Below are positions 1 through 10,575 of a DNA stretch of 13,421 bases, one piece after another; within the stretch, counting starts at the first letter, position 1, and each line of letters begins with the position of its first letter. A model generated the notes under the pieces. The model was not told the DNA's origin and did not search any database. It saw nothing but the letters and a program-made list of their open reading frames with translations. The stretch spans positions 1 to 13,421 of the forward strand of contig JBGAIQ010000089.1 in assembly GCA_044225365.1 (NCBI GenBank), read 5' to 3'. Source of the DNA: Planctomycetota bacterium. Lineage in GTDB: Bacteria; Planctomycetota; B15-G4; JADJEK01. Made by a program: the position numbers and the translations under genes.

Positions 1-8
1 CCACAGCC

Positions 9-70
9 GCCGCCGCCAACCCGGCGGTTACGGATCGCAGCCGCCGCCAACCCGGCGGTTACGGATCGCA
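9..70. repeat. Two perfect tandem copies of a 31-bp GC-rich unit, plus a partial third copy to about 84
   Basis: GCCGCCGCCAACCCGGCGGTTACGGATCGCA at 9-39 and 40-70, then GCCGCCGCCGCCAA. Each unit contains the hairpin CCGCC-AACCC-GGCGG. Lies just downstream of the hydrolase stop codon. Confidence 0.9.
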
Positions 71-110
71 GCCGCCGCCGCCAAAAATCGACCGGCACCG
101 ACCGCCGCTC

Positions 111-869
111 TCAACGGGGGTCGAGGCGCTCGATGAAATCGTCGATCCGTTCGACGATCTCACCGAGATGCTTCTCCATGCGATGCGATCCGTTCGCGAG
201 TCGCACGAACTCGAGCGGCGCGCGGATTCGCGATGCGACCTTCTCGGACTCCTCGATCGGGACCGTCGCGTCCTGATCCCCGTGCATCAAGAGCACCGGC
301 TGGGTGATGGCCCCCGCGATCGCCGCTTCGTCTACGGTGCGCGCGTCGCGCAGCAGCTCGAACGCGAGATCGACCTCGAAGAACTCCCCTCGATACCGAA
401 AGCTCCCGGTGCGTTCCCATTCCGCGAGGACTTTCGGTCCGATCGCCTGCTCGAAGCGCGACCGGAATCCGAATGCCGGCGCAAGCAGCACGAGGCCCGC
501 GACGTGATCGCGATCCTTCGCCGCGGCCATCGCCGCCACGAGTCCGCCCATCGACGAGCCGATCAGCACGTGCTTCTGCCGCAGCAGCAACGCATCGCGG
601 ACGCTCTCGTAGTCCCCCAACTGGCGGCGCAGCGTCAGGCTTCGAAACTCCCCGTTCGAATCGCCGAGCCCTTGAAAGTCGAGCGCGACGAAGCGTTTCC
701 CTCGTCGCGGAAGATCGCTCGCGAGCCGCGTCGCCTTCTCGCCCCGTCGCACGGAGCCAAACCCCGGCAGGAATACCGCGGTCGCGCGACGAGGACCGCT
801 CGGAGCAAAGTCATCGACGGCGATTCGAATGCTCTCGTCATCGCGATGGGGGACGTGATGGACCGTCAT
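111..869 (-). CDS. Alpha/beta-fold hydrolase (esterase/lipase-like; ABHD10/YqiA-like)
   Basis: Oxyanion region FLPGFGS, DFQGLGDS, nucleophile elbow GSSMGG, HGDQDATVP (catalytic Asp) and GSH (catalytic His). Starts 10 nt after the upstream stop. Confidence 0.9.
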   Translation of the reverse strand: MTVHHVPHRDDESIRIAVDDFAPSGPRRATAVFLPGFGSVRRGEKATRLASDLPRRGKRFVALDFQGLGDSNGEFRSLTLRRQLGDYESVRDALLLRQKHVLIGSSMGGLVAAMAAAKDRDHVAGLVLLAPAFGFRSRFEQAIGPKVLAEWERTGSFRYRGEFFEVDLAFELLRDARTVDEAAIAGAITQPVLLMHGDQDATVPIEESEKVASRIRAPLEFVRLANGSHRMEKHLGEIVERIDDFIERLDPR

Positions 870-879
870 CGTTCCGGCT

Positions 880-2550
880 TCAACTTCGCTTGCCGAGCTT
901 CAGGCTCACGGAGAGTGAATCCTTGCCGCGCGCGATCGTGAGAGTCACCGGATCGCCCGCACACTTCTTCCGCGCCAGGAAATCCGTGAACGCCTGACGA
1001 TCCGCCAATTTCGTTCCGTCCGCTTCGAGGATCGCATCTCCCGCGCGAAGGTCGGCTTTCGCCGCAGGCTGATCCGGAACCACCGCATCGATGCGCACGC
1101 CACCGCCGGCGTTGTCCGACAAGGTGGCCCCGAGCACGGCGGGCTCGATGGTGCCGCCCTCGCGCCAACGCGGAACGAGCGCCTTCACGGCCTCGATCGG
1201 CATCACGAAACCGAGCCCGCTGTTCTGTCCGAACGGCAGGAAGGGCGGAAACGCGATCCCGACGAGGCGACCGTGCAGATCGACGACCGCTCCCGCGGCG
1301 TTCTTCATGTTGATCCCGGCGTCGGTCTCGAGCGCGTCGCGGAAGACGTCGATCTGATGCTGCGCCGACAGGATCCCGGTCGTCACGAAACCATCGCGCG
1401 TGATCGCTGCCTCCGGCGGCCCGTCCGGCGCGCCGACCACGATGATGAACTGCCCGATCTCGAGACTCGCCTGCGAGCGAGTTTCGAGCACGCTGAACGA
1501 CTTTCCCGCGGGGTCGATCGAAAGCACCGCGAATCCGGACTTGAAGTCCCGCGCGAGCAGTTTGCCCGCGACCTTGCTCCCGTCTGCCGCATACACGTCG
1601 ATCGCGCTCGGCTCGACGACGAACGGCGCGAGCGCGGTGACCACGATGCCCGTCGCGTCGACGAGCGTGCCGCTGATCGGGCCGCGCCGCGCCGGCAGTC
1701 CGCCGAGCGCGGGAAGGTCGACCTTGGCGTCGGCATAACTCGGCACCACCGTGACGACGCCGCTTCGCGCGCGTTTCGCCGCGATCGCGAAGCCCTGGGA
1801 CATCGTTTCGCTGAGCGACTGCGGAGGCGTCAACATGCGCGGGCGGTCGAAGATCGCCTCGTTCGGCTTCGAGACTGCGTAGTTCGCGACGATGCGGTCG
1901 ATCGGCGTCAGCGTCGCAAGGTCGTCGTCCTTCGGCAAATTGTGCTCGAGCCCGATCAGGTCACCGTGGATGTTGAAGTACGGACCGCCTTCCTGCCCCG
2001 GATTCGTCGCGGCGGAGGTCTCGAGTCGAATCGCGTTGTCCTGTGCATCGCGCCTTATCCCGGAGAGCACGCCGAGCGTGACGGACGGGCCGCTGTCCTC
2101 GGTCGTGTCGAACGAGTTGCCGATCGTCATCAACAAGTGTCCGACCGCGAGGTCGGCGGGGTTGCCCGGTCGTGCGCTCGGAAAGTTCTTCTTCGCTTCG
2201 ATGCGCAGAAGTGCCGTCGCGGACGCTTCGTCGGTGGCGTAGACGGTGGCGCGCTGGGCTCCCAGGTCGGAGAACACGACGTCGACGTACGGCTCCTTCC
2301 GCTTCTTCGCCTCGCTCGCGACCTTGATGTCGGTGAGCACGAAACCCTTCGCGTTCACGCACACGCCGCTCGCGAACTGACCTGCCTGCCCGACGCGAAC
2401 GACGGACGGCGCGATCTTCTTCACGAGTTCGACGACTTCCTTGTCGAGACTGCCGAGATTCGCCGAAGCCTGCGCGACGGCATGACGTGTCGCCGCGAGC
2501 GTCGCGATACCGAGGCAGAGCAGTGAGACGAAGGAACGCGGGGTTCTCAT
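880..2550 (-). CDS. Secreted HtrA/S1C-like protein with two trypsin-like domains and one PDZ domain; both protease domains predicted catalytically inactive
   Basis: Signal peptide (MRTPRSFVSLLCLGIATLAATRHAVA-Q). Domain 1: PSVVRV, SGVCVNAKGFVLT, VTLGVLSG, TSAATNPGQEGGP. Domain 2: SGTLVDATGIVVT, VTTGILSA, ETDAGINMKNAAGAVVD. C-terminal PDZ: VLGATL, PAAKADLRAGDAILEADG. Start overlaps the upstream stop (ATGA). Confidence 0.88.
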   Translation of the reverse strand: MRTPRSFVSLLCLGIATLAATRHAVAQASANLGSLDKEVVELVKKIAPSVVRVGQAGQFASGVCVNAKGFVLTDIKVASEAKKRKEPYVDVVFSDLGAQRATVYATDEASATALLRIEAKKNFPSARPGNPADLAVGHLLMTIGNSFDTTEDSGPSVTLGVLSGIRRDAQDNAIRLETSAATNPGQEGGPYFNIHGDLIGLEHNLPKDDDLATLTPIDRIVANYAVSKPNEAIFDRPRMLTPPQSLSETMSQGFAIAAKRARSGVVTVVPSYADAKVDLPALGGLPARRGPISGTLVDATGIVVTALAPFVVEPSAIDVYAADGSKVAGKLLARDFKSGFAVLSIDPAGKSFSVLETRSQASLEIGQFIIVVGAPDGPPEAAITRDGFVTTGILSAQHQIDVFRDALETDAGINMKNAAGAVVDLHGRLVGIAFPPFLPFGQNSGLGFVMPIEAVKALVPRWREGGTIEPAVLGATLSDNAGGGVRIDAVVPDQPAAKADLRAGDAILEADGTKLADRQAFTDFLARKKCAGDPVTLTIARGKDSLSVSLKLGKRS

Positions 2551-3620
2551 TTCGGGAGCGGCTTCGTGCGCTTCTCGGACGTGAACGTCTTCACGCTCAC
2601 CTTGTCCTTCCGATAGAACGTGAGGCTCAGCTCCGATCCGCCGGGCAGCATCGACGCCTTGTTCTCGAACGTGCTCGGCGTCACCTTCTCACCGTTCAGT
2701 GCGACGATGCGATCGCCGTCCTTCATCCCGGCCTTCGCCGCGGGCGAGCCGGCGACGACGGCTTTGACGAGAACTCCATCATCCGGCCCGGCGCCGTCCG
2801 CGAGGACGAGTCCGTGGAAGCCCGGCTCGATCATCCCGCCTTCGTTCAGCGCTTTCATGAAGTTCTGGACCTGTCGCGCCGGGATCGTGAAACCGACCCC
2901 CACGTTGGTGAGCGCATTCGTCGTCGTCGCGATCTTTCCGTTGATTCCGATGATCCGCCCGTTGGTGTCGAAGAGCGGACCGCCGGAGTTGCCCGGATTG
3001 ATCTCGGCGTCCGTCTGGATCGCGTTCTCGTACGGAAACGTCGGGTCCTCGGCGCGCCGATGCAACCCGGAGACGATCCCGAGCGTGACCACGGGATGGC
3101 CCTTCATCGCGAGCGCGCGCGGGTTGCCGGCCGCGATCACGAATTGCCCGGGCTGGATCAGATTCGATTTCGCCCACTCGGCCGGCGTGACGTCCGTGCA
3201 CTTCGAGAGCAGCAGCGCGAAGTCGTAGCTCGTGACCTCGGAGTGCTCGGTCACTGGCAGCACGCGTCCGTCGTGGAGCACGACCTCGAGGCGGGAGTTG
3301 CCGCGCACGACGTGGACGTTCGTGAAGATCCGACCGTCATTGCTCGTGACGAATCCCGATCCCACGGAGACGACGCGCTCCACCTTCGGCGAGTTCGCGC
3401 CGCCATCTCCACCATTCTTGGGCGCGACCCATTGGTAGTTGAGCACGCTCACCGTCGAGCGCTGCACGCGTGCCGCGAGCGAGATGAAGGCGCGCTCGAT
3501 CTTGTCGGCCTGTTGGAGCACCGCTTCGTCGTCGGCGCCCGCCGCCGCGTTCTGCGAGTGCGCGAAGGAACCGCTCGCGAGGACGAGCGCCGGCACGAGG
3601 TATCGAATCGAGATGCGCAT
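2547..3620 (-). CDS. Secreted HtrA/DegP-family (S1C) serine protease with a single PDZ domain
   Basis: Signal peptide, complete triad TNVHVV (His), YDFALL (Asp), IQTDAEINPGNSGGPL (Ser), and PDZ motif GSPAAKAGMKDGDRIVALNG. RBS GGAGGG upstream of the ATG. Confidence 0.95.
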   Translation of the reverse strand: MRISIRYLVPALVLASGSFAHSQNAAAGADDEAVLQQADKIERAFISLAARVQRSTVSVLNYQWVAPKNGGDGGANSPKVERVVSVGSGFVTSNDGRIFTNVHVVRGNSRLEVVLHDGRVLPVTEHSEVTSYDFALLLSKCTDVTPAEWAKSNLIQPGQFVIAAGNPRALAMKGHPVVTLGIVSGLHRRAEDPTFPYENAIQTDAEINPGNSGGPLFDTNGRIIGINGKIATTTNALTNVGVGFTIPARQVQNFMKALNEGGMIEPGFHGLVLADGAGPDDGVLVKAVVAGSPAAKAGMKDGDRIVALNGEKVTPSTFENKASMLPGGSELSLTFYRKDKVSVKTFTSEKRTKPLPK

Positions 3621-3644
3621 GCCATCCCTCCGCGGAAGCCGCCT

Positions 3645-4571
3645 TCAGGCGGTGGGCTGCAGGGCGGGCACGGTGCCGTTCAAGGTGAGGACCTCGACTC
3701 CGTCCTCGCGAATGTACAGCGTGTGCTCGAACTGCGCGACGAACGCGCCGGCGCGTTCGACGAGCGGCGGATAGACGACGAGTTGTCCCGACATCGCCAT
3801 CGAATTCAGCGTGCGCGCGACGGATTCGTAGGGGAATCGCGACACCAGGCAGCGGCTGCCGAAGGGCAACCCACCGAAACCCTCGATCGCGGAGACCACG
3901 GAGGCGTCCATCCCCTTCACCTTCTTCACGCTCTTCTTCGTCATGAAGACGTGGGGATCGCCCTGCTCGCGCACGATGCCCGTGCCATCGGTGGCGAACG
4001 GTTCGATCGCGACGCAAGTGCCGGCCTTCAGCGTTCCGCGGCCATTCGGCACGTTCGGGATCTGCGGTGCGCGGTGGATGATGTAGCGGCCGACGCCGTG
4101 CCCCGTGAGATTCTTCACGGGCTCGTAGCCGTAGCCGCGGATCACGCGCTCGACCTCGCGGCCGATCACGTTGACGTCGACATCCGGCCCCGCGACCGCA
4201 ATCGCGGCGGCGAGCGCGTCCTTCGACGCGGCCAGCATTCGAGCGTGCCGACCATCCGCGCTGAGATCGATGGACACGGCGGTGTCGGCGACGAATCCGT
4301 CGACATGCACGCCGGTATCGATCTTGATGAGGTCACCCTCTTCGGCGGTCGTGGGGTCGCCGATGTACGGGCAGTAGTGCGCAGCGATGTGGTTGCGCGA
4401 GATCTGCAGCGGGAAGGCCGGCTGCGCGCCGAACTCCGCGATGCGCTTGTGACCCGCGAGCGCGGCATCGATCAACTTCGTGCCGGGCTTGAGGAGCGAC
4501 GCCACGTGATCGCGGACGTTCGCGGCGATCGCCGCAGCGCGGCGCCATTTCTCGAGATGCTCGCGTTCCAT
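3645..4571 (-). CDS. map: Methionine aminopeptidase, type II (archaeal/eukaryotic type)
   Basis: AFPLQISRNHIAAHYCP, KIDTGVHVDGFVADTA (two metal Asp), NLTGHG (His), AIEPFAT (Glu), AQFEHT (Glu), and the type II helical insertion between EPFAT and QFEHT (FGGLPFGSRCL...YPPL). The true start is most likely MEREHL at 4571; the 5708 start in the ORF track is antisense shadow of the next gene. Confidence 0.93.
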   Translation of the reverse strand: MEREHLEKWRRAAAIAANVRDHVASLLKPGTKLIDAALAGHKRIAEFGAQPAFPLQISRNHIAAHYCPYIGDPTTAEEGDLIKIDTGVHVDGFVADTAVSIDLSADGRHARMLAASKDALAAAIAVAGPDVDVNVIGREVERVIRGYGYEPVKNLTGHGVGRYIIHRAPQIPNVPNGRGTLKAGTCVAIEPFATDGTGIVREQGDPHVFMTKKSVKKVKGMDASVVSAIEGFGGLPFGSRCLVSRFPYESVARTLNSMAMSGQLVVYPPLVERAGAFVAQFEHTLYIREDGVEVLTLNGTVPALQPTA

Positions 4572-4578
4572 GGGATCC

Positions 4579-4607
4579 GTTGTAACCGAGAGTGGGGGTT
4601 CTTTCCA
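4579..4607 (-). promoter_or_regulatory. Possible sigma70-like promoter for a (near-)leaderless map transcript
   Basis: Minus strand TGGAAA-17 nt-TACAAC, ending 7 nt before the ATG, with no SD sequence in between. Both hexamers are imperfect. Confidence 0.25.
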
Positions 4608-4739
4608 TCGGCGTCGCGTCGCAATCGAGAATGAGGCCAAGGACCATCGCACGGCGAGAACGTGCGTCCAGTCCCTTTGAGTCCTGCGTAGGATGAGCGC
4701 GAGGGCTTCGATCGCGGGACTTACGAGAGAAAGGGCAGC

Positions 4740-5702
4740 ATGAAGATCGTGATTCCGGGCGGTTCGGGGCAGATCGGAAACGTGCTCGCACGGGCGTTCG
4801 TGGCTCGCGGGGACGAGGTCGTCGTGCTGAGCCGCACGCCGCGAAAGGCCCCGTGGCGAATCGTCCCTTGGGATGGCAAGAGCCTCGGTGATTGGGCAAC
4901 GGAGGTCGATGGCGCCGATGTCGTCATCAACCTCGCGGGACGCAGCGTCGACTGCCGCTACACGCAGGAAAATCGCCGCGAGATCCTGGAATCGAGGACG
5001 CTCTCGACGCGCGTGGTCGGCGAGTCGATTCGAATCGCGAAGCGCCCGCCACGCACGTGGCTGCAGTCGAGCACTGCGACGATCTACGCCCATCGCTTCG
5101 ACGCCGGCAACGACGAGGTGAATGGGATCCTCGGTGGATCCGACGGCGAGAAGGATGCCCCGGACATGTGGAAGTTCTCGATCGAGGTCGCAACGGCGTG
5201 GGAGCAGACCGCGATCGCCGCAAACGTGAAGGATACGCGACTCGTTCTCCTGCGATCGGCGATGACGATGAGTCCGGACGCCGGCGGCGTGTTCGCAGTC
5301 CTCTCGCGACTCGCGCGCCTCGGGCTCGGCGGCGCCGTCGCAGGCGGTCGCCAGTTCGTGTCGTGGATCCACGACGCCGATTTCATCGCGGCGGTGCTGT
5401 TCCTCGCTGCGAACGAGCGACTCGACGGCGCCGTGAATCTGGCATCGCCGAATCCCTTGCCGTATTCCGAGTTCATGCGGGCGCTGCGGCAGGCGTGGCG
5501 CGTGCCGATCGGCCTGCCCGCCACGGCCTGGATGCTGGAGATCGCCACGTTCTTCCTGCGCACCGAGTCCGAGCTCGTCCTGAAGAGCCGGCGAGTCGTT
5601 CCCAAGCGACTGCTTGACGCCGGCTTCACCTTCCGCTTCCCCGACTGGCCCACAGCGGCGATCGACCTCGTCGCCCGCTCCGCTCCGAAGCGAGGCGCCT
5701 GA
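4740..5702 (+). CDS. TIGR01777-family NAD(P)-dependent epimerase/oxidoreductase (YfcH/SDR39U1-like, C-terminal DUF1731)
   Basis: N-terminal Rossmann motif IPGGSGQIG, VINLAGRSV, ILESR, WE, QFVSWIH, VNLASPNP, and C-terminal LKSRRVVPKRLLDAGFTFRFP. Confidence 0.92.
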   Translation: MKIVIPGGSGQIGNVLARAFVARGDEVVVLSRTPRKAPWRIVPWDGKSLGDWATEVDGADVVINLAGRSVDCRYTQENRREILESRTLSTRVVGESIRIAKRPPRTWLQSSTATIYAHRFDAGNDEVNGILGGSDGEKDAPDMWKFSIEVATAWEQTAIAANVKDTRLVLLRSAMTMSPDAGGVFAVLSRLARLGLGGAVAGGRQFVSWIHDADFIAAVLFLAANERLDGAVNLASPNPLPYSEFMRALRQAWRVPIGLPATAWMLEIATFFLRTESELVLKSRRVVPKRLLDAGFTFRFPDWPTAAIDLVARSAPKRGA

Positions 5703-5739
5703 AGGCAAGACGTTCGGGATCGCAGCGAGGATCGATCCT

Positions 5740-5878
5740 CCGGACCGCCGGGGTCTTCCGGACCGCCGAGGTCTTCCGGTCTGCCGAGGTGTTCCGGTCT
5801 GCCGAGGTGTTCCGGTCTGCCGGGGTCTTCCGGACCGCCGAGGTCTTCCGGACCGCCGAGGTCTTCCGGACCGCCGGG
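5740..5878. repeat. Intergenic minisatellite: seven full 18-bp units plus a partial eighth
   Basis: Units start at 5740, 5758, 5776, 5794, 5812, 5830 and 5848 with consensus CCGG(A/T)C(C/T)GCCG(A/G)GGT(C/G)TT. Partial unit at 5866. Confidence 0.95.
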
Positions 5879-5945
5879 CTCCGCCCGGCTCCGTTCTTCT
5901 CTTCTTCCCCCGGACCGCCGGGCTCCGCCCGGCTCCGTTCTTCTC
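5866..5945. repeat. 36-bp direct repeat, two copies with 44-bp period, fused to the end of the minisatellite
   Basis: CCGGACCGCCGGGCTCCGCCCGGCTCCGTTCTTCTC at 5866-5901 and 5910-5945. Confidence 0.92.
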
Positions 5946-5964
5946 CTCGTCCTCCCGACCTGGC

Positions 5965-7371
5965 TTACCCCATCCCCAAGACCACGCCCTTCAACCTCCG
6001 CAGTCCCGCCGCCAGCCGCGCTGGATCGTTCTCCGACGAGAGCGAGACGCGAACGGCGCGCGGCGGCGGCGCGGGCGGCACGCAGAACAGATCCGGCCCC
6101 ACGATGCGCACTCCTGCCGCGGCGGCGGCGGCCACCACGGCGTCCGCACGCAGATCGACCTTCCCGGGCGGAAGCTCGAGCCACAGATGATGCGCACCGC
6201 GCGGCAACGCGTAACGGAAGCCCTGCGAGCGCGGCAGTTCGCGCCGCGCGATCGCGTGGCGTTCGTCGATCGCGGCGCGTCGCGCCTTCACCAGCCTTTC
6301 GGAGTGTCCTTGCTCGAGCAGAAGCGTTCCGATCTCGATCTGCAACGGCGCGGGCGCCCACGACAAGGTCTGCACCGCGCCGCAGAGCTGGCGCGCGAGC
6401 GGGGCGGGCACCACGAGGTACGCGAGGCGCAACCCGGGCGCCATGAGCTTCGTCGAATCGAGCAGGAAGCACGCTCGCTCCTTCATCCGCGAGGCGAGCG
6501 GTGGAACGGCCGTCGCGACGCAACTGTCGTCGTCGTCCTCGAGGACGAACGTCCCGTAGCGCCGCAACACCTGCGCGATCTTCTGCCGTCGCGCATCGGG
6601 AGTGAGCGTCGCCGTCGCGGGGTTGAGCGTCGGCACGCAGTAGAGGAGCTTCGGCGACAGCTTCCTGCACGCGGCATCGAGCGCCTCGGGAACGAGACCG
6701 TGACGATCGACGCGGACGGGATGGAGGCGGATGCGCATCGCTTCGGCGAGGCGCCGGATCCCGGGATAGGTGAGGCTCTCGGTCAGCACGACGTCGCCCG
6801 GCCGCGCGAGCGTCCCGAAGACCGCGGCGATGCCTTGCTGCGCGCCCTGGCACACGAGCATCACGTCGTTCGGCGGCGAGAAGGCGAGACCGATCCGTTT
6901 CAGGTGCGCGGCGATGAGACGGGAGACGCGATCATCGGCGACGAACGTCGTCGCGCGCGGCTTCGCGATCGAGTGGACGCGCTGGGCCATCGTCGAGAGC
7001 GCGTCGCGGAGCGCCGCTTCCTCCATCGCCTGCACGCGCAGCGGCACGCTCGGTCCCAGGTCGAAGACGGCGGGATCGTGGACGCGTTCGACGTCGAACT
7101 CCATCGTTCGCGCCATCGGTCGCCGCACGTACGAGCCGCGACCGGTCTCGCACGCGAGAAGGCCACGCCGCTTCGCTTCGGCGAAGGCGCGCGTGACGGT
7201 TCCGATCGTGACGCGAAGATCGCGCGCGAGTTCGCGCTGCGAGGGCAGGCGCGCTCCGTCGTCGAGACGGCCCGTTTCGATGTCGGCCGCGAGCGCATCG
7301 GCGAGCCGCAAGTAGAACGGCGCCCGCGAGTCGGCGATCTTCGGCCGCCAAGTGTCACCGTGACATTTCAT
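5965..7371 (-). CDS. MocR/GabR-family transcriptional regulator (GntR wHTH plus PLP-dependent aminotransferase-like domain)
   Basis: YLRLADALAADIETGRL...RLPSQRELARDLRVTIGTVTRAF...GRGSYV (GntR HTH); GAQQGI, ESLTYPG, LEDD, DSTKLMAPGLRLAY (PLP-binding Lys). Confidence 0.93.
   Translation of the reverse strand: MKCHGDTWRPKIADSRAPFYLRLADALAADIETGRLDDGARLPSQRELARDLRVTIGTVTRAFAEAKRRGLLACETGRGSYVRRPMARTMEFDVERVHDPAVFDLGPSVPLRVQAMEEAALRDALSTMAQRVHSIAKPRATTFVADDRVSRLIAAHLKRIGLAFSPPNDVMLVCQGAQQGIAAVFGTLARPGDVVLTESLTYPGIRRLAEAMRIRLHPVRVDRHGLVPEALDAACRKLSPKLLYCVPTLNPATATLTPDARRQKIAQVLRRYGTFVLEDDDDSCVATAVPPLASRMKERACFLLDSTKLMAPGLRLAYLVVPAPLARQLCGAVQTLSWAPAPLQIEIGTLLLEQGHSERLVKARRAAIDERHAIARRELPRSQGFRYALPRGAHHLWLELPPGKVDLRADAVVAAAAAAGVRIVGPDLFCVPPAPPPRAVRVSLSSENDPARLAAGLRRLKGVVLGMG
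7353..7365. promoter_or_regulatory. Candidate operator: inverted repeat TGTCAC-N-GTGACA over the 5' end of the MocR gene
   Basis: Perfect 6-1-6 palindrome. Related half-sites CGTCAC (7379), TGTCAT (7395) and TGTCGC (7411) lie in the divergent intergenic region. Confidence 0.4.
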
Positions 7372-7475
7372 CTCGAATCGTCACCGTTCGTGCGTGTCAT
7401 CCCGAGTCGATGTCGCTGCGCGGTATCGTCGGATCCGCGCCGCACCGCGATAGGAATTCCTTGAGGTCGCTCATC

Positions 7476-9248
7476 ATGCCACGGTTCCCCTACGTCGCTC
7501 TTCTGTCCGGTCTCATTTCCGCCTTCGCCGGCGCGGGCGAATCGCGTGCGGGGAATCCCATCGCGACTCCTCCGGCCGAGACCTGGCTGGAGCGGCTCGA
7601 GGGCCGCGGATTCTCCGGAGCCGTGCTCGCGATCGACGACGGCGAGGTCTTGATCGACCGCGCCTTCGGCCTCTCCGACGTCGAGGCGAAGGTCAAGATG
7701 AGCGTCGACTCGGTCTTCGACATCGGCTCCATCACGAAGCAATTCACCGCGGCGGCGATCCTCGCGCTCGATCAGGACGGCAAGCTCGCCGTCACCGATC
7801 TCCTGTCCAAGTACGTCGGCCCCGTGCCGAAGGACAAGGCGACGATCACGCTAGAGCATCTGCTCACGCATTCGGCGGGCTTCCTCGGCGAGATCGGTCG
7901 CGACGAGGACTACGTCGGAAGCGACGATTTCGTGAAGCTCGCGCTCGCTTCCCGACTCCAGTTCGAGCCGGGCTCGGACTACAGCTACTCCAATGTCGGA
8001 TTCGCGCTTCTCGGGATCATCGTCGAGAAGGTCACGGGCAAGGGATACGAGGCGTTCTTGCGCGAGCGGTTCTTCGATCCACTCGGGATGAAGGACACCG
8101 GCTACGTGCTTCCCAAGTGGGATCGCTCGCGAATCGCGTGCTGCTACCAGAATGGCGCGCGCTGGGGACTTCCGATCGACAAGAACTGGCACGCCGATGG
8201 GCCGGGCTGGCACCTGCGCGGCAACGGCGGAATCCTCACGACGCTCGAGGACATGCAGCGCTGGATCGAATCGCTCGACGAAGCGAAGGTCCTCGACGAG
8301 AAGCACTGCGATGAACTCTTCGTCCCGCGCGTGCGCGAGGGCCGCGGTGCGGACACGTTCTACGGCTATGGCTGGTCGGTGTTCTCGTCACCGCTCGGCG
8401 GCCAGATTCGCACGCACGACGGCGGCAACGGCATCCTGTCCGCGGATCTGTGGTGGCACGAACACAAGTCGCGCGTCGTGTTCGTCACCTCCACGCGATC
8501 GGAGTGGATCGCCGACGACATCCGCGAAGGCGTGCTCGACTTCCTGAACGGCGAGGGCAGGCCCATCCCATCGGCGACACGCGCGAGCGATCCCGCGGAG
8601 GGCAAGGCGGCGGAGGGCGTCTATCGCGGACACGGCGGCGGGATCGACGGCGCCGCGTTCACGGTGGCCTCCGACGGCACTGCGTTGCGAATCGACGCGA
8701 ACGACGCGAAAGCGTTCGCGATCCTCTCGGACCCTGGCGCGAAGGACCTCGAAGCGCGCCTCGCGCTCGCGAAGGAGACCGAGGCGATCGTCACGGCGAT
8801 GCAGGGCGGCGATTTCTCGGAACTCGGCAAACACTACGCAGGCTCGCGGGAACCCAGTGCATTCGTCGCTCGCGTGAAAGGAATCTTCGACGACCGGACC
8901 GCCGAGGTCGGCGCATGGAAGTCGCACACGACCCTTGGGCCCGCGCCGTTCGAGCAGGGAATCGTCGTGTGGGTGCATTGCGTCGCGGAGAGGGATTCCG
9001 CGTACGCTGGGTTCCTGTGGAACGAGGGCCATCTCGAAGGGATCACCTTCCGCGATCGTCCGCCCATGCGACGGTTCTTCCCCGTCCTCGCGGACGCGAA
9101 GGAGTCGGGTTCGACGTACGAGTCCTTCTCGCTGCGTCCCGCGGATTCCGCGCTTCCGACGGTGCGGCTCGAGGTGCACCTCGATGGCAAGCGTCGTCGG
9201 ATCGTCGTCGCGGGCGGCGACGCCCGCTTCGAATTCAGCGGTTCCTGA
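7476..9248 (+). CDS. Secreted serine hydrolase of the beta-lactamase/AmpC-like (peptidase S12) family with a C-terminal extension
   Basis: GFSGAVL, FDIGSITKQF (SxxK), LLTHSAG, FEPG, YSYSNVGF (YxN), GMKDT, YGYGW, HDGG. Signal peptide MPRFPYVALLSGLISAFAGA. RBS GAGGT at 7463-7467 favours ATG 7476 over 7410. Confidence 0.9.
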   Translation: MPRFPYVALLSGLISAFAGAGESRAGNPIATPPAETWLERLEGRGFSGAVLAIDDGEVLIDRAFGLSDVEAKVKMSVDSVFDIGSITKQFTAAAILALDQDGKLAVTDLLSKYVGPVPKDKATITLEHLLTHSAGFLGEIGRDEDYVGSDDFVKLALASRLQFEPGSDYSYSNVGFALLGIIVEKVTGKGYEAFLRERFFDPLGMKDTGYVLPKWDRSRIACCYQNGARWGLPIDKNWHADGPGWHLRGNGGILTTLEDMQRWIESLDEAKVLDEKHCDELFVPRVREGRGADTFYGYGWSVFSSPLGGQIRTHDGGNGILSADLWWHEHKSRVVFVTSTRSEWIADDIREGVLDFLNGEGRPIPSATRASDPAEGKAAEGVYRGHGGGIDGAAFTVASDGTALRIDANDAKAFAILSDPGAKDLEARLALAKETEAIVTAMQGGDFSELGKHYAGSREPSAFVARVKGIFDDRTAEVGAWKSHTTLGPAPFEQGIVVWVHCVAERDSAYAGFLWNEGHLEGITFRDRPPMRRFFPVLADAKESGSTYESFSLRPADSALPTVRLEVHLDGKRRRIVVAGGDARFEFSGS

Positions 9249-9434: not shown

Positions 9435-9606
9435 CGTCGCCGAAGAGCGGCGCCGTCCGTCCGTGGAGTCCCGAACGCGGATTCGATCCGTTTACAAGAC
9501 GAACAACGAGGACTGGGCGACCAGAGCGGGCTCCGCCGGCTTGCCGAGGACGCACCAGGACTCTCGCACCCGCTGCCCGGAGACGGTCGGCGGGTGCTCT
9601 TCTTTC
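9435..9606 (+). ncRNA. Candidate structured RNA / transcription attenuator (unassigned family)
   Basis: Long-range pairing 9442-9462 with 9580-9602, inner stem 9465-9471 with 9558-9564, tetraloop hairpins, and an alternative terminator hairpin 9566-9597 with a U-tract. No match recognised to a known Rfam family. Confidence 0.4.
9566..9606 (+). terminator. Intrinsic terminator-like hairpin
   Basis: GCACCCGCTG-C-CCG [GAGA] CGG-T-CGGCGGGTGC gives 13 bp including one G-U and one mismatch, with a GNRA loop, followed by TCTTCTTT. Confidence 0.6.
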
Positions 9607-9640
9607 GTGCGGTGGGGTGCTCTGGATTTTCCGGCTCGCA

Positions 9641-9656
9641 CCGAACCGCGGTTCGG
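9641..9656. promoter_or_regulatory. Perfect 16-bp palindrome, possible operator or hairpin
   Basis: CCGAACCGCGGTTCGG equals its own reverse complement and lies 46 nt upstream of ATG 9703. Confidence 0.35.
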
Positions 9657-9702
9657 ATTACCGTTGAGGACCGAGCCGACACCCACCCCTAGGAACTGGA
9701 CC

Positions 9703-10575
9703 ATGTCGAGAGCCATTTTCGCATCCCTTTGCGCTGCCGCCTTGTTCGCCTCGGCGTCGATCGCCGGCCAGACCTGGACCTTCGATGTGAAGACCTCGGG
9801 GCAGAACGTGACCTGGACGTCGCCGACTGCCGTCGACCCCGCCGCTTCCGTCTACGCGGTGAACTACACGATCACCAAGGTGCTCGTCGACGTCACCTGG
9901 CTCGGGATTCCCTTCAACGGCATCGACGTCACGAACCAGATCCCGCCGGCGATGCAATCCGCGGCGTTCGAAGTGCCCGGCCCCGCGCCGGTCGCTGCGC
10001 TGAACCAACCGGTCGTGATCCCGCCGCCGCCGACGGCCCCGGCCTTTGCCGCGAACCTCTCGTTCGGACTCGACGCCAACGGCTTTGGCTATGCGAGCGC
10101 CACGAACGTCGTCCTCGGCACCCTCGCGGTCAATCTCGGCGGCATCTTCGGCACGCAGAACGTGACATTGAAGGCCGTACGACTCATCGGGAACCTCACG
10201 ATCCATGGCGCGTGGTTCGATCTCGGGCACGCGCTCGCGGGCAGCCTCGGCACCCCGTTCTTCACGGGATCGGGACCGCTCTCGAGCGGTTCGGCGCTGA
10301 CGCTGACGCTCACCAACGCCTCGCCGTCCTCGCCGACCCTCTTCATCGTCGGACTCTCGACGATCAATCTGCCGTTCCACGGCGGCTTGATGGTCCCCTC
10401 CGTGGATCTCGTCATCCCGCTCGCAACCGATCCGACGGGCAGCTTCTCGCTCCCCGCGAACTGGCCGGCGGGGATCCCGGCGAATACTTCGCTCTACATG
10501 CAGTGCTGGGTCCTGAACCCCGCCGGCACTGCGGTCGATGGGGCGTCGAACGCATTGCGCGCCGTCGCGCAGTAA
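9703..10575 (+). CDS. Secreted hypothetical protein: beta-rich N-terminal domain plus a C-terminal ~120-aa domain of a type recurrent in planctomycete exported proteins
   Basis: Signal peptide MSRAIFASLCAAALFASASIA-G, purine-rich AGGAACTGGA upstream, strong GC3 codon bias from 9703 onward. C-terminus WFDLGHALAG...GGLMVP...LYMQCWVLNP...SNALRAVAQ. Confidence 0.8.
   Translation: MSRAIFASLCAAALFASASIAGQTWTFDVKTSGQNVTWTSPTAVDPAASVYAVNYTITKVLVDVTWLGIPFNGIDVTNQIPPAMQSAAFEVPGPAPVAALNQPVVIPPPPTAPAFAANLSFGLDANGFGYASATNVVLGTLAVNLGGIFGTQNVTLKAVRLIGNLTIHGAWFDLGHALAGSLGTPFFTGSGPLSSGSALTLTLTNASPSSPTLFIVGLSTINLPFHGGLMVPSVDLVIPLATDPTGSFSLPANWPAGIPANTSLYMQCWVLNPAGTAVDGASNALRAVAQ

Follow-up and report, generated by a model that had tools for sequence, protein, structure and literature searches.

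Two adjacent genes in the Planctomycetota DNA analysed here (a single stretch of 13,421 nucleotides, hereafter the window) probably encode an asymmetric 1:1 HtrA heterotrimer with a single active site, which is the best reading of their sequences and of the structures predicted from them. In the textbook picture an HtrA protease is a symmetric homotrimer, in which a neighbouring subunit turns on each active site. In the window, an active protease (P0002, or ACT) and a tandem pseudoprotease (P0001) with two dead domains, D1 and D2, would instead pair 1:1, giving an asymmetric ring that contains three protease folds, a single catalytic site and two PDZ domains, with D1 and D2 standing in for two of the three identical subunits of a DegP- or DegS-type trimer. 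The locus has the following features:

111..869, minus strand: alpha/beta hydrolase gene, downstream context, starting 10 nt past the stop of the tandem gene
880..2550, minus strand: P0001, tandem pseudoprotease, 556 aa (signal-like N-terminus, D1, D2, PDZ)
895..1137, minus strand: PDZ domain of P0001 (residues 472-552; Pfam PF13180)
1156..1812, minus strand: dead domain D2 (residues 247-465; His to Ala308, Asp to Gly339, Ser to Ala418)
1867..2457, minus strand: dead domain D1 (residues 32-228; His to Lys76, Asp to Ala111, Ser to Glu187)
2547..2550, minus strand: ATGA stop/start overlap from the ACT gene to the tandem gene, read on the coding strand
2547..3620, minus strand: ACT (P0002), HtrA-type protease, 357 aa (signal-like N-terminus, protease domain, one PDZ)
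2598..2828, minus strand: PDZ domain of ACT (residues 265-341; Pfam PF00595/PF13180)
2838..3515, minus strand: protease domain of ACT (residues ~36-261)
3312-3314, 3222-3224 and 2985-2987, minus strand: catalytic His103, Asp133 and Ser212 of ACT
3645..4580, minus strand: Peptidase_M24 (methionine aminopeptidase-like) gene, upstream context

An earlier note on this DNA had read an intact His/Asp/Ser triad in the gene at 2547-3620 and, in its neighbour, a PDZ domain and two trypsin-like domains with every triad position lost; each of these observations was borne out. P0002 carries the motifs TNVH103, YD133FA and GNS212GG, and the full triad is invariant in partner proteases of its type (14/14 and, in another set, 40/40). 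When active, D1 and D2 domains were aligned together, the equivalent positions in P0001 were K76/A111/E187 in D1 and A308/G339/A418 in D2. The oxyanion Gly position of D2 is Lys416, and D1 retains the N-P-G loop. No homologue with an intact triad was found among 29 D1 and 29 D2 sequences: the alignment lacks the catalytic His and Ser in all of them, and the Asp site is kept in 5/29 D1 and 2/29 D2 domains (43/84 for D1 in a deeper alignment). As judged by sequence, P0001 is an HtrA-fold pseudoprotease and not a protease. Pfam recognizes two Trypsin_2 stretches (domain matches 1948-2373 and 1255-1674) and one PDZ domain in P0001, with PF13365 above cut-off for ACT, D1 and D2; P0002 likewise has one PDZ, and D1 has none of its own. 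The N-termini of both proteins and their homologues are basic-hydrophobic (peak Kyte-Doolittle 2.4 and 1.9 for the two proteins, from sequence alone). AlphaFold2 folds P0001 alone with a pLDDT of 93.7, and its D1 and D2 ranges alike match DegQ/DegS structures (Z 22-24). In the solved structures searched, no single chain matched D1 and D2 together, a result that does not by itself prove absence.

In a tree of 81 domains, which omits 16 of 39 loci that repeat stretches fetched earlier, ACT (89/91) and D2 (100/96) are each set apart from the other domains by a single branch; the same holds for D1, with weak support (79/46) for its being one lineage. Across five close pairs, dN/dS was 0.10-0.16 for D1, 0.10-0.24 for D2 and 0.11-0.34 for ACT, so that no relaxed selection was detected and the substitution ratios indicate that D1 and D2 are under purifying selection. 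These data bear on the hardly credible notion that the 556-aa gene arose as a duplicate now in decay or from faulty assembly. Such an origin would fit the low mutual identity of D1, D2 and ACT (only 23-25%) and the abundance of long shadow frames in 66% GC DNA, but it is refuted by the presence of the P0001 gene in 12/12 genomes of the family and by its purifying whole-gene dN/dS (0.18-0.26); the open frames and the confident fold also speak against it.

As judged by domain counts, the window pair is one form of a Planctomycetota-wide cassette composed of one intact domain and two distinct dead lineages. One intact and two dead domains in a row were found in 37 of 40 loci, hand-picked from 63 ranked matches. 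A further 32 loci, drawn from the strongest matches in 137 genomes, held 34 cassettes, 33 of them with the order dead, dead, intact and the last truncated where the region stops. Hits below roughly 1e-43 in strength, which may be ordinary HtrA genes, were left out, and 137/401 is not a cassette count. Of 44 loci fetched from named genomes, five contained just one intact HtrA gene of the ordinary kind and were set aside; an intact protease is adjacent in 35 of the 39 D1/D2-bearing loci that remained, and 4 run into the edge of a contig. Related genomes in these locus counts are not independent. The gene pair is conserved, and the ATGA overlap that the earlier note had placed between the two genes is indeed present, with a 4-nt overlap between the ACT and tandem genes recurring in 28/33 cassettes of the window's type.

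The same three domains are encoded in four ways: 1+2, 1+1+1, 2+1 and as a single chain. The first is the form of the window, the second that of L049 and of 21 cassettes in the 34-cassette set, and the third (ACT-D1 plus D2) that of L081, L095, L101 and L115; 23 two-domain proteins joining an intact and a dead domain were present among 270 search hits. Twelve single-chain three-domain proteins have one triad each and occur in both orders, ACT-D1-D2 and D1-D2-ACT; the 10 of these 12 that were looked up belong to clusters of 1-2 members on 1-2 contigs. Because ACT is joined to D1 by only 18-27 residues with no intervening PDZ, P0052, P0071 and P0208 are not simple read-throughs. Among 150 + 120 hits, none had a second intact triad or a fourth domain. 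The cassette is duplicated in L051, L058 and L062, in each case with all three parts together. A second HtrA pair in the same genome as the window consists of an active and a single dead protein with no third gene, an arrangement conserved in 8/8 loci; therefore an active protease is not always accompanied by two dead partners. On balance we favour the view that these proteins form an ancient class of HtrA protease spread through the phylum, in which an obligate heterotrimer of one catalytic and two non-interchangeable pseudo-subunits, encoded by one to three genes, would break the three-fold symmetry and divide sensing, assembly and cutting. Acidobacteriota may have evolved this design separately, as the single-chain dead-active-dead P0096.

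Complex prediction with P0001 and P0002 scored 0.90 in 3 runs; the best of 3 controls, which included no HtrA paralogue, scored 0.02. Of 157 solved complexes, 116 attain the 0.90 mark, as do 2 of 215 mismatched pairs. The runs share at least 79% of their contacts, with a partner pLDDT of at least 79, and ACT is predicted to touch both D1 and D2. The modelled complex resembles solved HtrA trimers, and the passing score may come from predictor memory. ACT retains both of its trimer surfaces and may also form homotrimers. Conservation is higher at the predicted interface than elsewhere in the domains (0.72 vs 0.61 in 29 sequences; 0.56 vs 0.49 in 84), and fusion P0052 is predicted as one unit (pTM 0.88 over 868 residues). 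The proposal of a 1:1 pseudo-trimer of one active and two dead folds, first made in the earlier note, is supported by the predicted ACT contacts with D1 and D2, by the three-domain count and by the fusions.

In the modelled ring the order would be D1, ACT, D2, with the sensor-loop side of D1 facing the ACT activation loops. D1 would be the activating or peptide-sensing subunit and D2 a structural one that supplies a PDZ. Since the dead domains would replace two subunits, they are probably needed to assemble the ring and to switch on its single active site, and they may bind substrate. HtrA activation requires residues from two adjacent subunits, as described in passages of PMC11642142. The step in which D1 activates ACT is weak because the sensor-loop Arg of D1, expected to trigger ACT in the canonical mechanism, is poorly retained (20/29 close and 24/80 wider homologues). 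We infer a periplasmic location and obligate assembly, with envelope protein quality control or regulated processing as the likeliest role.

The same 1:1 complex could have another purpose, with D1-D2 acting mainly as a cap or inhibitor that keeps ACT from forming an active homotrimer until a signal arrives. The predicted complex and the 1:1 coupling fit this equally well; the sensor-loop Arg is not constant in D1, and ACT retains Arg188 and Gln202 of the normal relay (14/14 close homologues). However, ACT could be freed from the ACT-D1-D2, D1-D2-ACT and many ACT-D1 fusions only if these were cut, and two separately conserved dead lineages exceed the needs of a simple cap, so that we regard an inhibitory function as unlikely.

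The heterotrimer must also be weighed against known relatives. HtrA/Deg proteases, MEROPS family S1C, share with the window proteins their fold, scaffold motifs, PDZ and predicted trimer-type interface, and DegP, DegQ, DegS, Deg1 and HhoA are the best sequence and structure matches. They differ in that two of the three folds here are triad-less and come from separate lineages. Both proteins lie well under the NCBIfam cut-offs for DegP/DegQ/DegS/Do (95-126 bits vs 408-756; for TIGR02037 201 bits, the best score, vs 416), and the ESM Atlas returned ordinary S1C clusters only. A literature search, judged by titles and abstract openings, found no such complex described.

MamE/MamO of magnetotactic bacteria is an active HtrA whose activity is promoted non-catalytically by an HtrA pseudoprotease, a pairing that arose three times according to sections of PMC4794232. 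The pairing of active and dead HtrA is shared; MamO, however, has one dead domain that crystallized as a monomer, works via a TauE domain and binds metal, with a surface di-histidine site (PMC4794232, whose main text lacks the word 'trimer'), whereas the window proteins are without TauE and score 78.6 and 54.8 against NCBIfam cut-offs of 800. DEG7/Nma111, reported for fungi and plants, has a duplicated degenerate HtrA domain specialized for protein contacts, according to passages of PMC3194040; each chain holds one active and one degenerate domain with up to four PDZ, and the homotrimer forms through the degenerate domains. P0001, in contrast, has two dead domains, none active and one PDZ, and two distinct dead domains per ring are proposed here. 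Arabidopsis DEG5/DEG8, a heterohexamer, is named in PMC3194040 as the one hetero-oligomeric exception, and the excerpt of PMC3640471 on Deg5 shows no casein degradation by it. DEG5/DEG8 comprises two gene products, each crystallized separately, in a hexamer, unlike a 1:1:1 ring in which triads are lost. PflC of Campylobacter is a triad-less periplasmic HtrA homologue reused non-catalytically (PMC12222027, in part). It serves as a scaffold in the flagellar motor and has one protease-like domain, two PDZ and no active partner, and thus differs from P0001 in architecture; no flagellar genes were found among the 9 window proteins scanned. The ClpP/ClpR cores found in cyanobacteria and plastids work alike, as protease rings with set places for inactive paralogues, but their fold is unrelated, their rings are heptameric and their partners ATP-dependent.

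The degenerate domain of plant DEG7, PflC and magnetosome MamO are also precedents for a dead protein that serves as a stand-alone oligomeric chaperone or scaffold, merely co-expressed with ACT. Chaperone action is possible for inactive HtrA variants (PMC11642142, in part), D2 occurs by itself in 2/40 loci (L083 and L084), and P0001 folds confidently without ACT (pTM 0.91). Yet an independent role leaves unexplained why intact and dead domains sum to three across four arrangements and why fusions occur in either order; a chain with two folds cannot by itself complete a three-membered ring, and conservation extends to the contacts predicted between ACT and both D1 and D2. We consider this explanation rather improbable and retain the asymmetric heterotrimer.

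Artificially mixed HtrA trimers have reportedly been needed so far to separate same-subunit from neighbour effects. If the heterotrimer is real, a ring of this kind found in nature, whose one active site has two fixed dead neighbours, would let each direction of signalling be tested separately, and single-chain versions such as P0052 would offer the same test. HtrA would join the proteases that use pseudo-subunits in fixed positions, with dead units that could control or feed a single cutting site, and a Planctomycetota cassette now annotated as two or three 'serine proteases' would be one enzyme.

Two COG0265 genes, Plim_1243 and Plim_3801, are listed in a study of essential genes in Planctopirus limnophila; their neighbours show values about tenfold higher in its Fig. 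S1 sheet except for Plim_1244, a thiamine monophosphate kinase (PMC10632474, in part). These values have no bearing on the cassette either way, the cassette not being tied to P. limnophila locus tags.

No sigma-70-like promoter was found in positions 1-5000 (0 vs 0.4 in shuffles). The window DNA is 66% GC and long shadow frames are plentiful; stop-to-stop frames of 900-1270 aa around family homologues were rejected as fusions, being shadow frames over separate genes. A neighbour cluster of 5 loci includes the window and may correspond to the alpha/beta hydrolase. The Peptidase_M24 neighbour is conserved within the family only, and one neighbour cluster covers 12 loci including the window.

The genome (6.5 Mb, 94% complete) includes the window as contig C94, and homologues with a named source belong to Planctomycetota. 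The features that matter here are the following:

3645-4580, reverse strand, Peptidase_M24 gene (Pfam)
2547-3620, reverse strand, P0002 (ACT), 357 aa, protease and PDZ domains (ORF and Pfam)
880-2550, reverse strand, P0001, 556 aa, with D1 (32-228), D2 (247-465) and PDZ (472-552) (ORF and Pfam)
111-869, reverse strand, alpha/beta hydrolase gene (Pfam)

By triad and domains, P0002 is an HtrA-family protease with an intact triad (H103, D133, S212), and its gene overlaps that of P0001 by ATGA, both as the earlier note had described. P0001 is an HtrA-fold pseudoprotease. Joint alignment of ACT, D1 and D2 places K76/A111/E187 of D1 and A308/G339/A418 of D2 at the triad positions, which bears out the claimed loss in both domains; the earlier sequence description was accurate in every detail checked. 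Neither protein reached the cut-off of a named NCBIfam family. Pairwise identity among the three domains is just 23-25%. The AlphaFold2 model of P0001 is a single rigid unit (pLDDT 93.7, pTM 0.91), and its D1 and D2 each match HtrA structures with Z of about 22-24; Foldseek also matched HtrA structures.

The earlier note had proposed that conserved adjacency, shared triad loss and a dN/dS below 1 be looked for, and all three were found. The tandem gene is present in all 12 genomes of the window's family and in 12 of the 401 genomes sampled across the phylum (E<=1e-40), 4 of those 12 lying outside the family, and an intact-triad HtrA gene is directly upstream of it wherever the contig extends far enough. 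Species genomes were also scanned, which yielded 44 loci. Once 5 ordinary single HtrA genes were set aside, 39 remained: 35 have an adjacent intact protease, and in the other 4 the contig ends on the side where it would lie. Of 33 cassettes with this gene order, 28 share the 4-nt overlap of stop and start codons, and a signal-like N-terminus is encoded after it. His and Ser are absent from 29/29 D1 and 29/29 D2 homologues and present in 14/14 partner proteases. Across five close genome pairs, dN/dS (Nei-Gojobori) ranged from 0.10 to 0.16 in D1, from 0.10 to 0.24 in D2 and from 0.11 to 0.34 in the active gene; the values of the dead domains indicate that D1 and D2 are under maintenance rather than decay.

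At the level of sequence, the decisive evidence for a count of three protease domains comes from more distant relatives. At one locus (L049), D1, D2 and the active protease are three separate genes. A single-domain D2-type protein, used as query in a stricter first look that yields a floor count, matched at least 63 of the 401 genomes, once each. Among 40 loci fetched with this query, 37 carry active, dead and dead domains consecutively, one has its active gene truncated by the contig end, and two (L083, L084) have D2 alone; ACT and D1 share one reading frame in four of the 40, and one has an extra intact HtrA gene on the opposite strand. When the L049 D2 gene served as query, 32 loci taken from the strongest matches held 34 cassettes, 33 of them in the order dead, dead, active (21 three-gene, 11 D1-D2 plus active, 1 ambiguous) and the last cut by the region end. 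Some D2 domains at these dead-dead-active loci have kept Ser, with or without Asp, but none has the His.

The survey of fusions covered 150 profile hits and 120 relatives of ACT of greater length. Twelve of these 270 proteins are three-domain single chains with exactly one intact triad each, ordered active-dead-dead (5), dead-dead-active (6) or dead-active-dead (1), and none of the 270 (17 of which had a domain left uncalled because it was broken up in the alignment) showed two intact triads or four protease domains. Such chains are rare, the 10 looked up falling in clusters of 1-2 members. In P0052, P0071 and P0208, ACT and D1 are joined by 18-27 residues without an intervening PDZ, so that these proteins are true fusions and not read-throughs; P0052 (868 aa) is predicted as one folded unit (pTM 0.88).

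An IQ-TREE phylogeny of 81 domains (66 from 22 cassettes, plus 15 outgroup rows) separated all cassette domains from the outgroup (support 92/91) and placed ACT (89/91), D2 (100/96) and, weakly, D1 (79/46) each on one side of a branch. FastTree analysis of 380 domains agreed on ACT and D2 and gave D1 as two groups with an unsupported join; a single origin is tentative for D1. The simplest reading is one ancestral three-part cassette, followed by rearrangement, fusion and duplication of the whole set. Unit duplication is seen at L051, L058 and L062; whole-cassette tandem duplicates (two pairs consecutively), or 2-3 copies within about 35 kb, occur at L051, L055, L058 and L062, at L128-L129 and at L131. 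The single-chain dead-active-dead protein P0096 (858 aa, Holophagales) has three domains that cluster together amid ordinary HtrA (99/87), which suggests an independent triplication; the design may thus have arisen a second time beyond Planctomycetota. For P0116 (its dead domains) and L012 (its dead partner), placement comes from FastTree only and is uncertain.

Complex prediction with residues 28-468 of P0001 and 28-264 of P0002 scored 0.90 (3 runs) versus 0.02 for the best of three controls, none an HtrA, with contact agreement of at least 79% between runs and partner pLDDT of at least 79. The pass mark, attained by 116/157 solved complexes and 2/215 mismatched pairs, is roughly valid here given the custom alignments, and the pass may reflect model memory of solved HtrA trimers, which resemble the predicted complex. 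ACT is predicted to contact D1 at 28-47, 153-160, 181, 183 and 206, and D2 at 244-256, 364-368, 392-397, 408, 410, 425-426 and 443-446, through the N-terminal helices and the TxGxxS and QTDA strands. The closest pairs (D1 L159 with ACT I182 and D204; ACT T179 and L180 with D2 D410; ACT L180 also with D2 I393) give the predicted ring order D1, ACT, D2. Conservation is higher at predicted interface positions than elsewhere (29 sequences, p 0.001; 84 sequences, p 0.05), with kin non-independent and burial uncontrolled.

The oxyanion hole of DegS and DegP forms when the LD loop of a subunit is contacted by an L3-loop Arg from its neighbour, within a residue cluster to which a conserved Gln also belongs (PMC11642142). 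We consider it probable that ACT, D1 and D2 form a hetero-ring that supports the activity of ACT, in which ACT would cut, D1 would sense or activate, and D2 would close the ring and supply a PDZ. Residues that we take to correspond to the L3 Arg, LD loop and Gln were mapped onto the cassette by alignment and residue numbering. The predicted ring order turns the L3 side of D1 toward ACT, and ACT Arg188 faces D2 position 408, a Gln in 78/84 homologues and Glu in the window's copy. The weak point is the activation of ACT by D1, since D1 retains the L3 Arg in just 20/29 close and 24/80 wider homologues; a ring that is mainly inhibitory seems unlikely to us. In 24/29 D2 sequences, Lys replaces the Gly of the oxyanion hole. 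The N-P-G loop of D1 is retained (81, 72 and 84 of 84), and D1 may therefore still hold peptide.

Related arrangements are known: active and dead HtrA proteins pair in MamE/MamO (PMC4794232), a degenerate HtrA domain lies within the active chain of DEG7 (PMC3194040), DEG5/DEG8 form a heterohexamer (PMC3194040, PMC3640471), and PflC is a dead HtrA acting as scaffold (PMC12222027). That P0001 is itself an independent chaperone or scaffold is improbable, and no likelier than inhibition. The word 'hetero' is absent from the main text of a review from 2024 on HtrA proteins in Gram-negative bacteria (PMC11642142); a preprint on microbial PDZ proteins describes PDZ expansion in planctomycetes, and its text, supplements aside, lacks the words 'inactive', 'catalytic' and 'operon'. 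Searches of the open literature, which mostly leaves subscription journals uncovered, turned up no account of an HtrA ring with one active and two dead members. Comparative genomics gives good support to the view that the cassette is a new variation on known HtrA systems.

Neighbouring genes say little about the substrate. Within the family, the M24 peptidase gene precedes the cassette (12 loci). The active-first three-gene cassette lies 3' of an NPCBM gene in 27 loci and of a gene annotated TPR in one copy in 29 loci, and in one genome examined further these two genes close a MoxR-DUF58-BatA/vWA run. At L116 (6643-20000) and L085 (1-8135) the three-gene cassette is the end of a MoxR AAA+, DUF58, BatA-vWA, vWA, unknown, NPCBM run. 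A squalene-hopene-cyclase-like repeat gene is 3' of the three-gene cassette in 7 loci.

The same genome holds a second HtrA pair (L012, contig C75, 5144-8025, reverse strand), in which the gene of an intact protease (6604-8025) shares 4 nt with that of one triad-less HtrA (5144-6607, two PDZ), a layout resembling a split DEG7/Nma111. This dead gene has matches in 12/12 family genomes and adjoins an active gene in 8/8 loci fetched, without a third gene; at L140, perhaps through misassembly, the pair forms a single reading frame that contains an internal signal-like stretch. A lone triad-less HtrA and PDZ gene (L013, contig C28, 4345-5646, forward strand), likewise matched in 12/12 family genomes, could be a missing third partner of this pair.

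Elsewhere in the window, positions 1-80, which open the contig just 3' of the hydrolase gene, contain a direct repeat (about 30 nt), and short repeated units with repetitive shadow translations separate epimerase and GntR-family genes (about 5700-5965). The ORF at 9463-10575 (forward strand, 370 aa) includes a signal-like stretch and had zero matches in a Pfam scan; by eye, its C-terminal part resembles that of L012 2825-4471.
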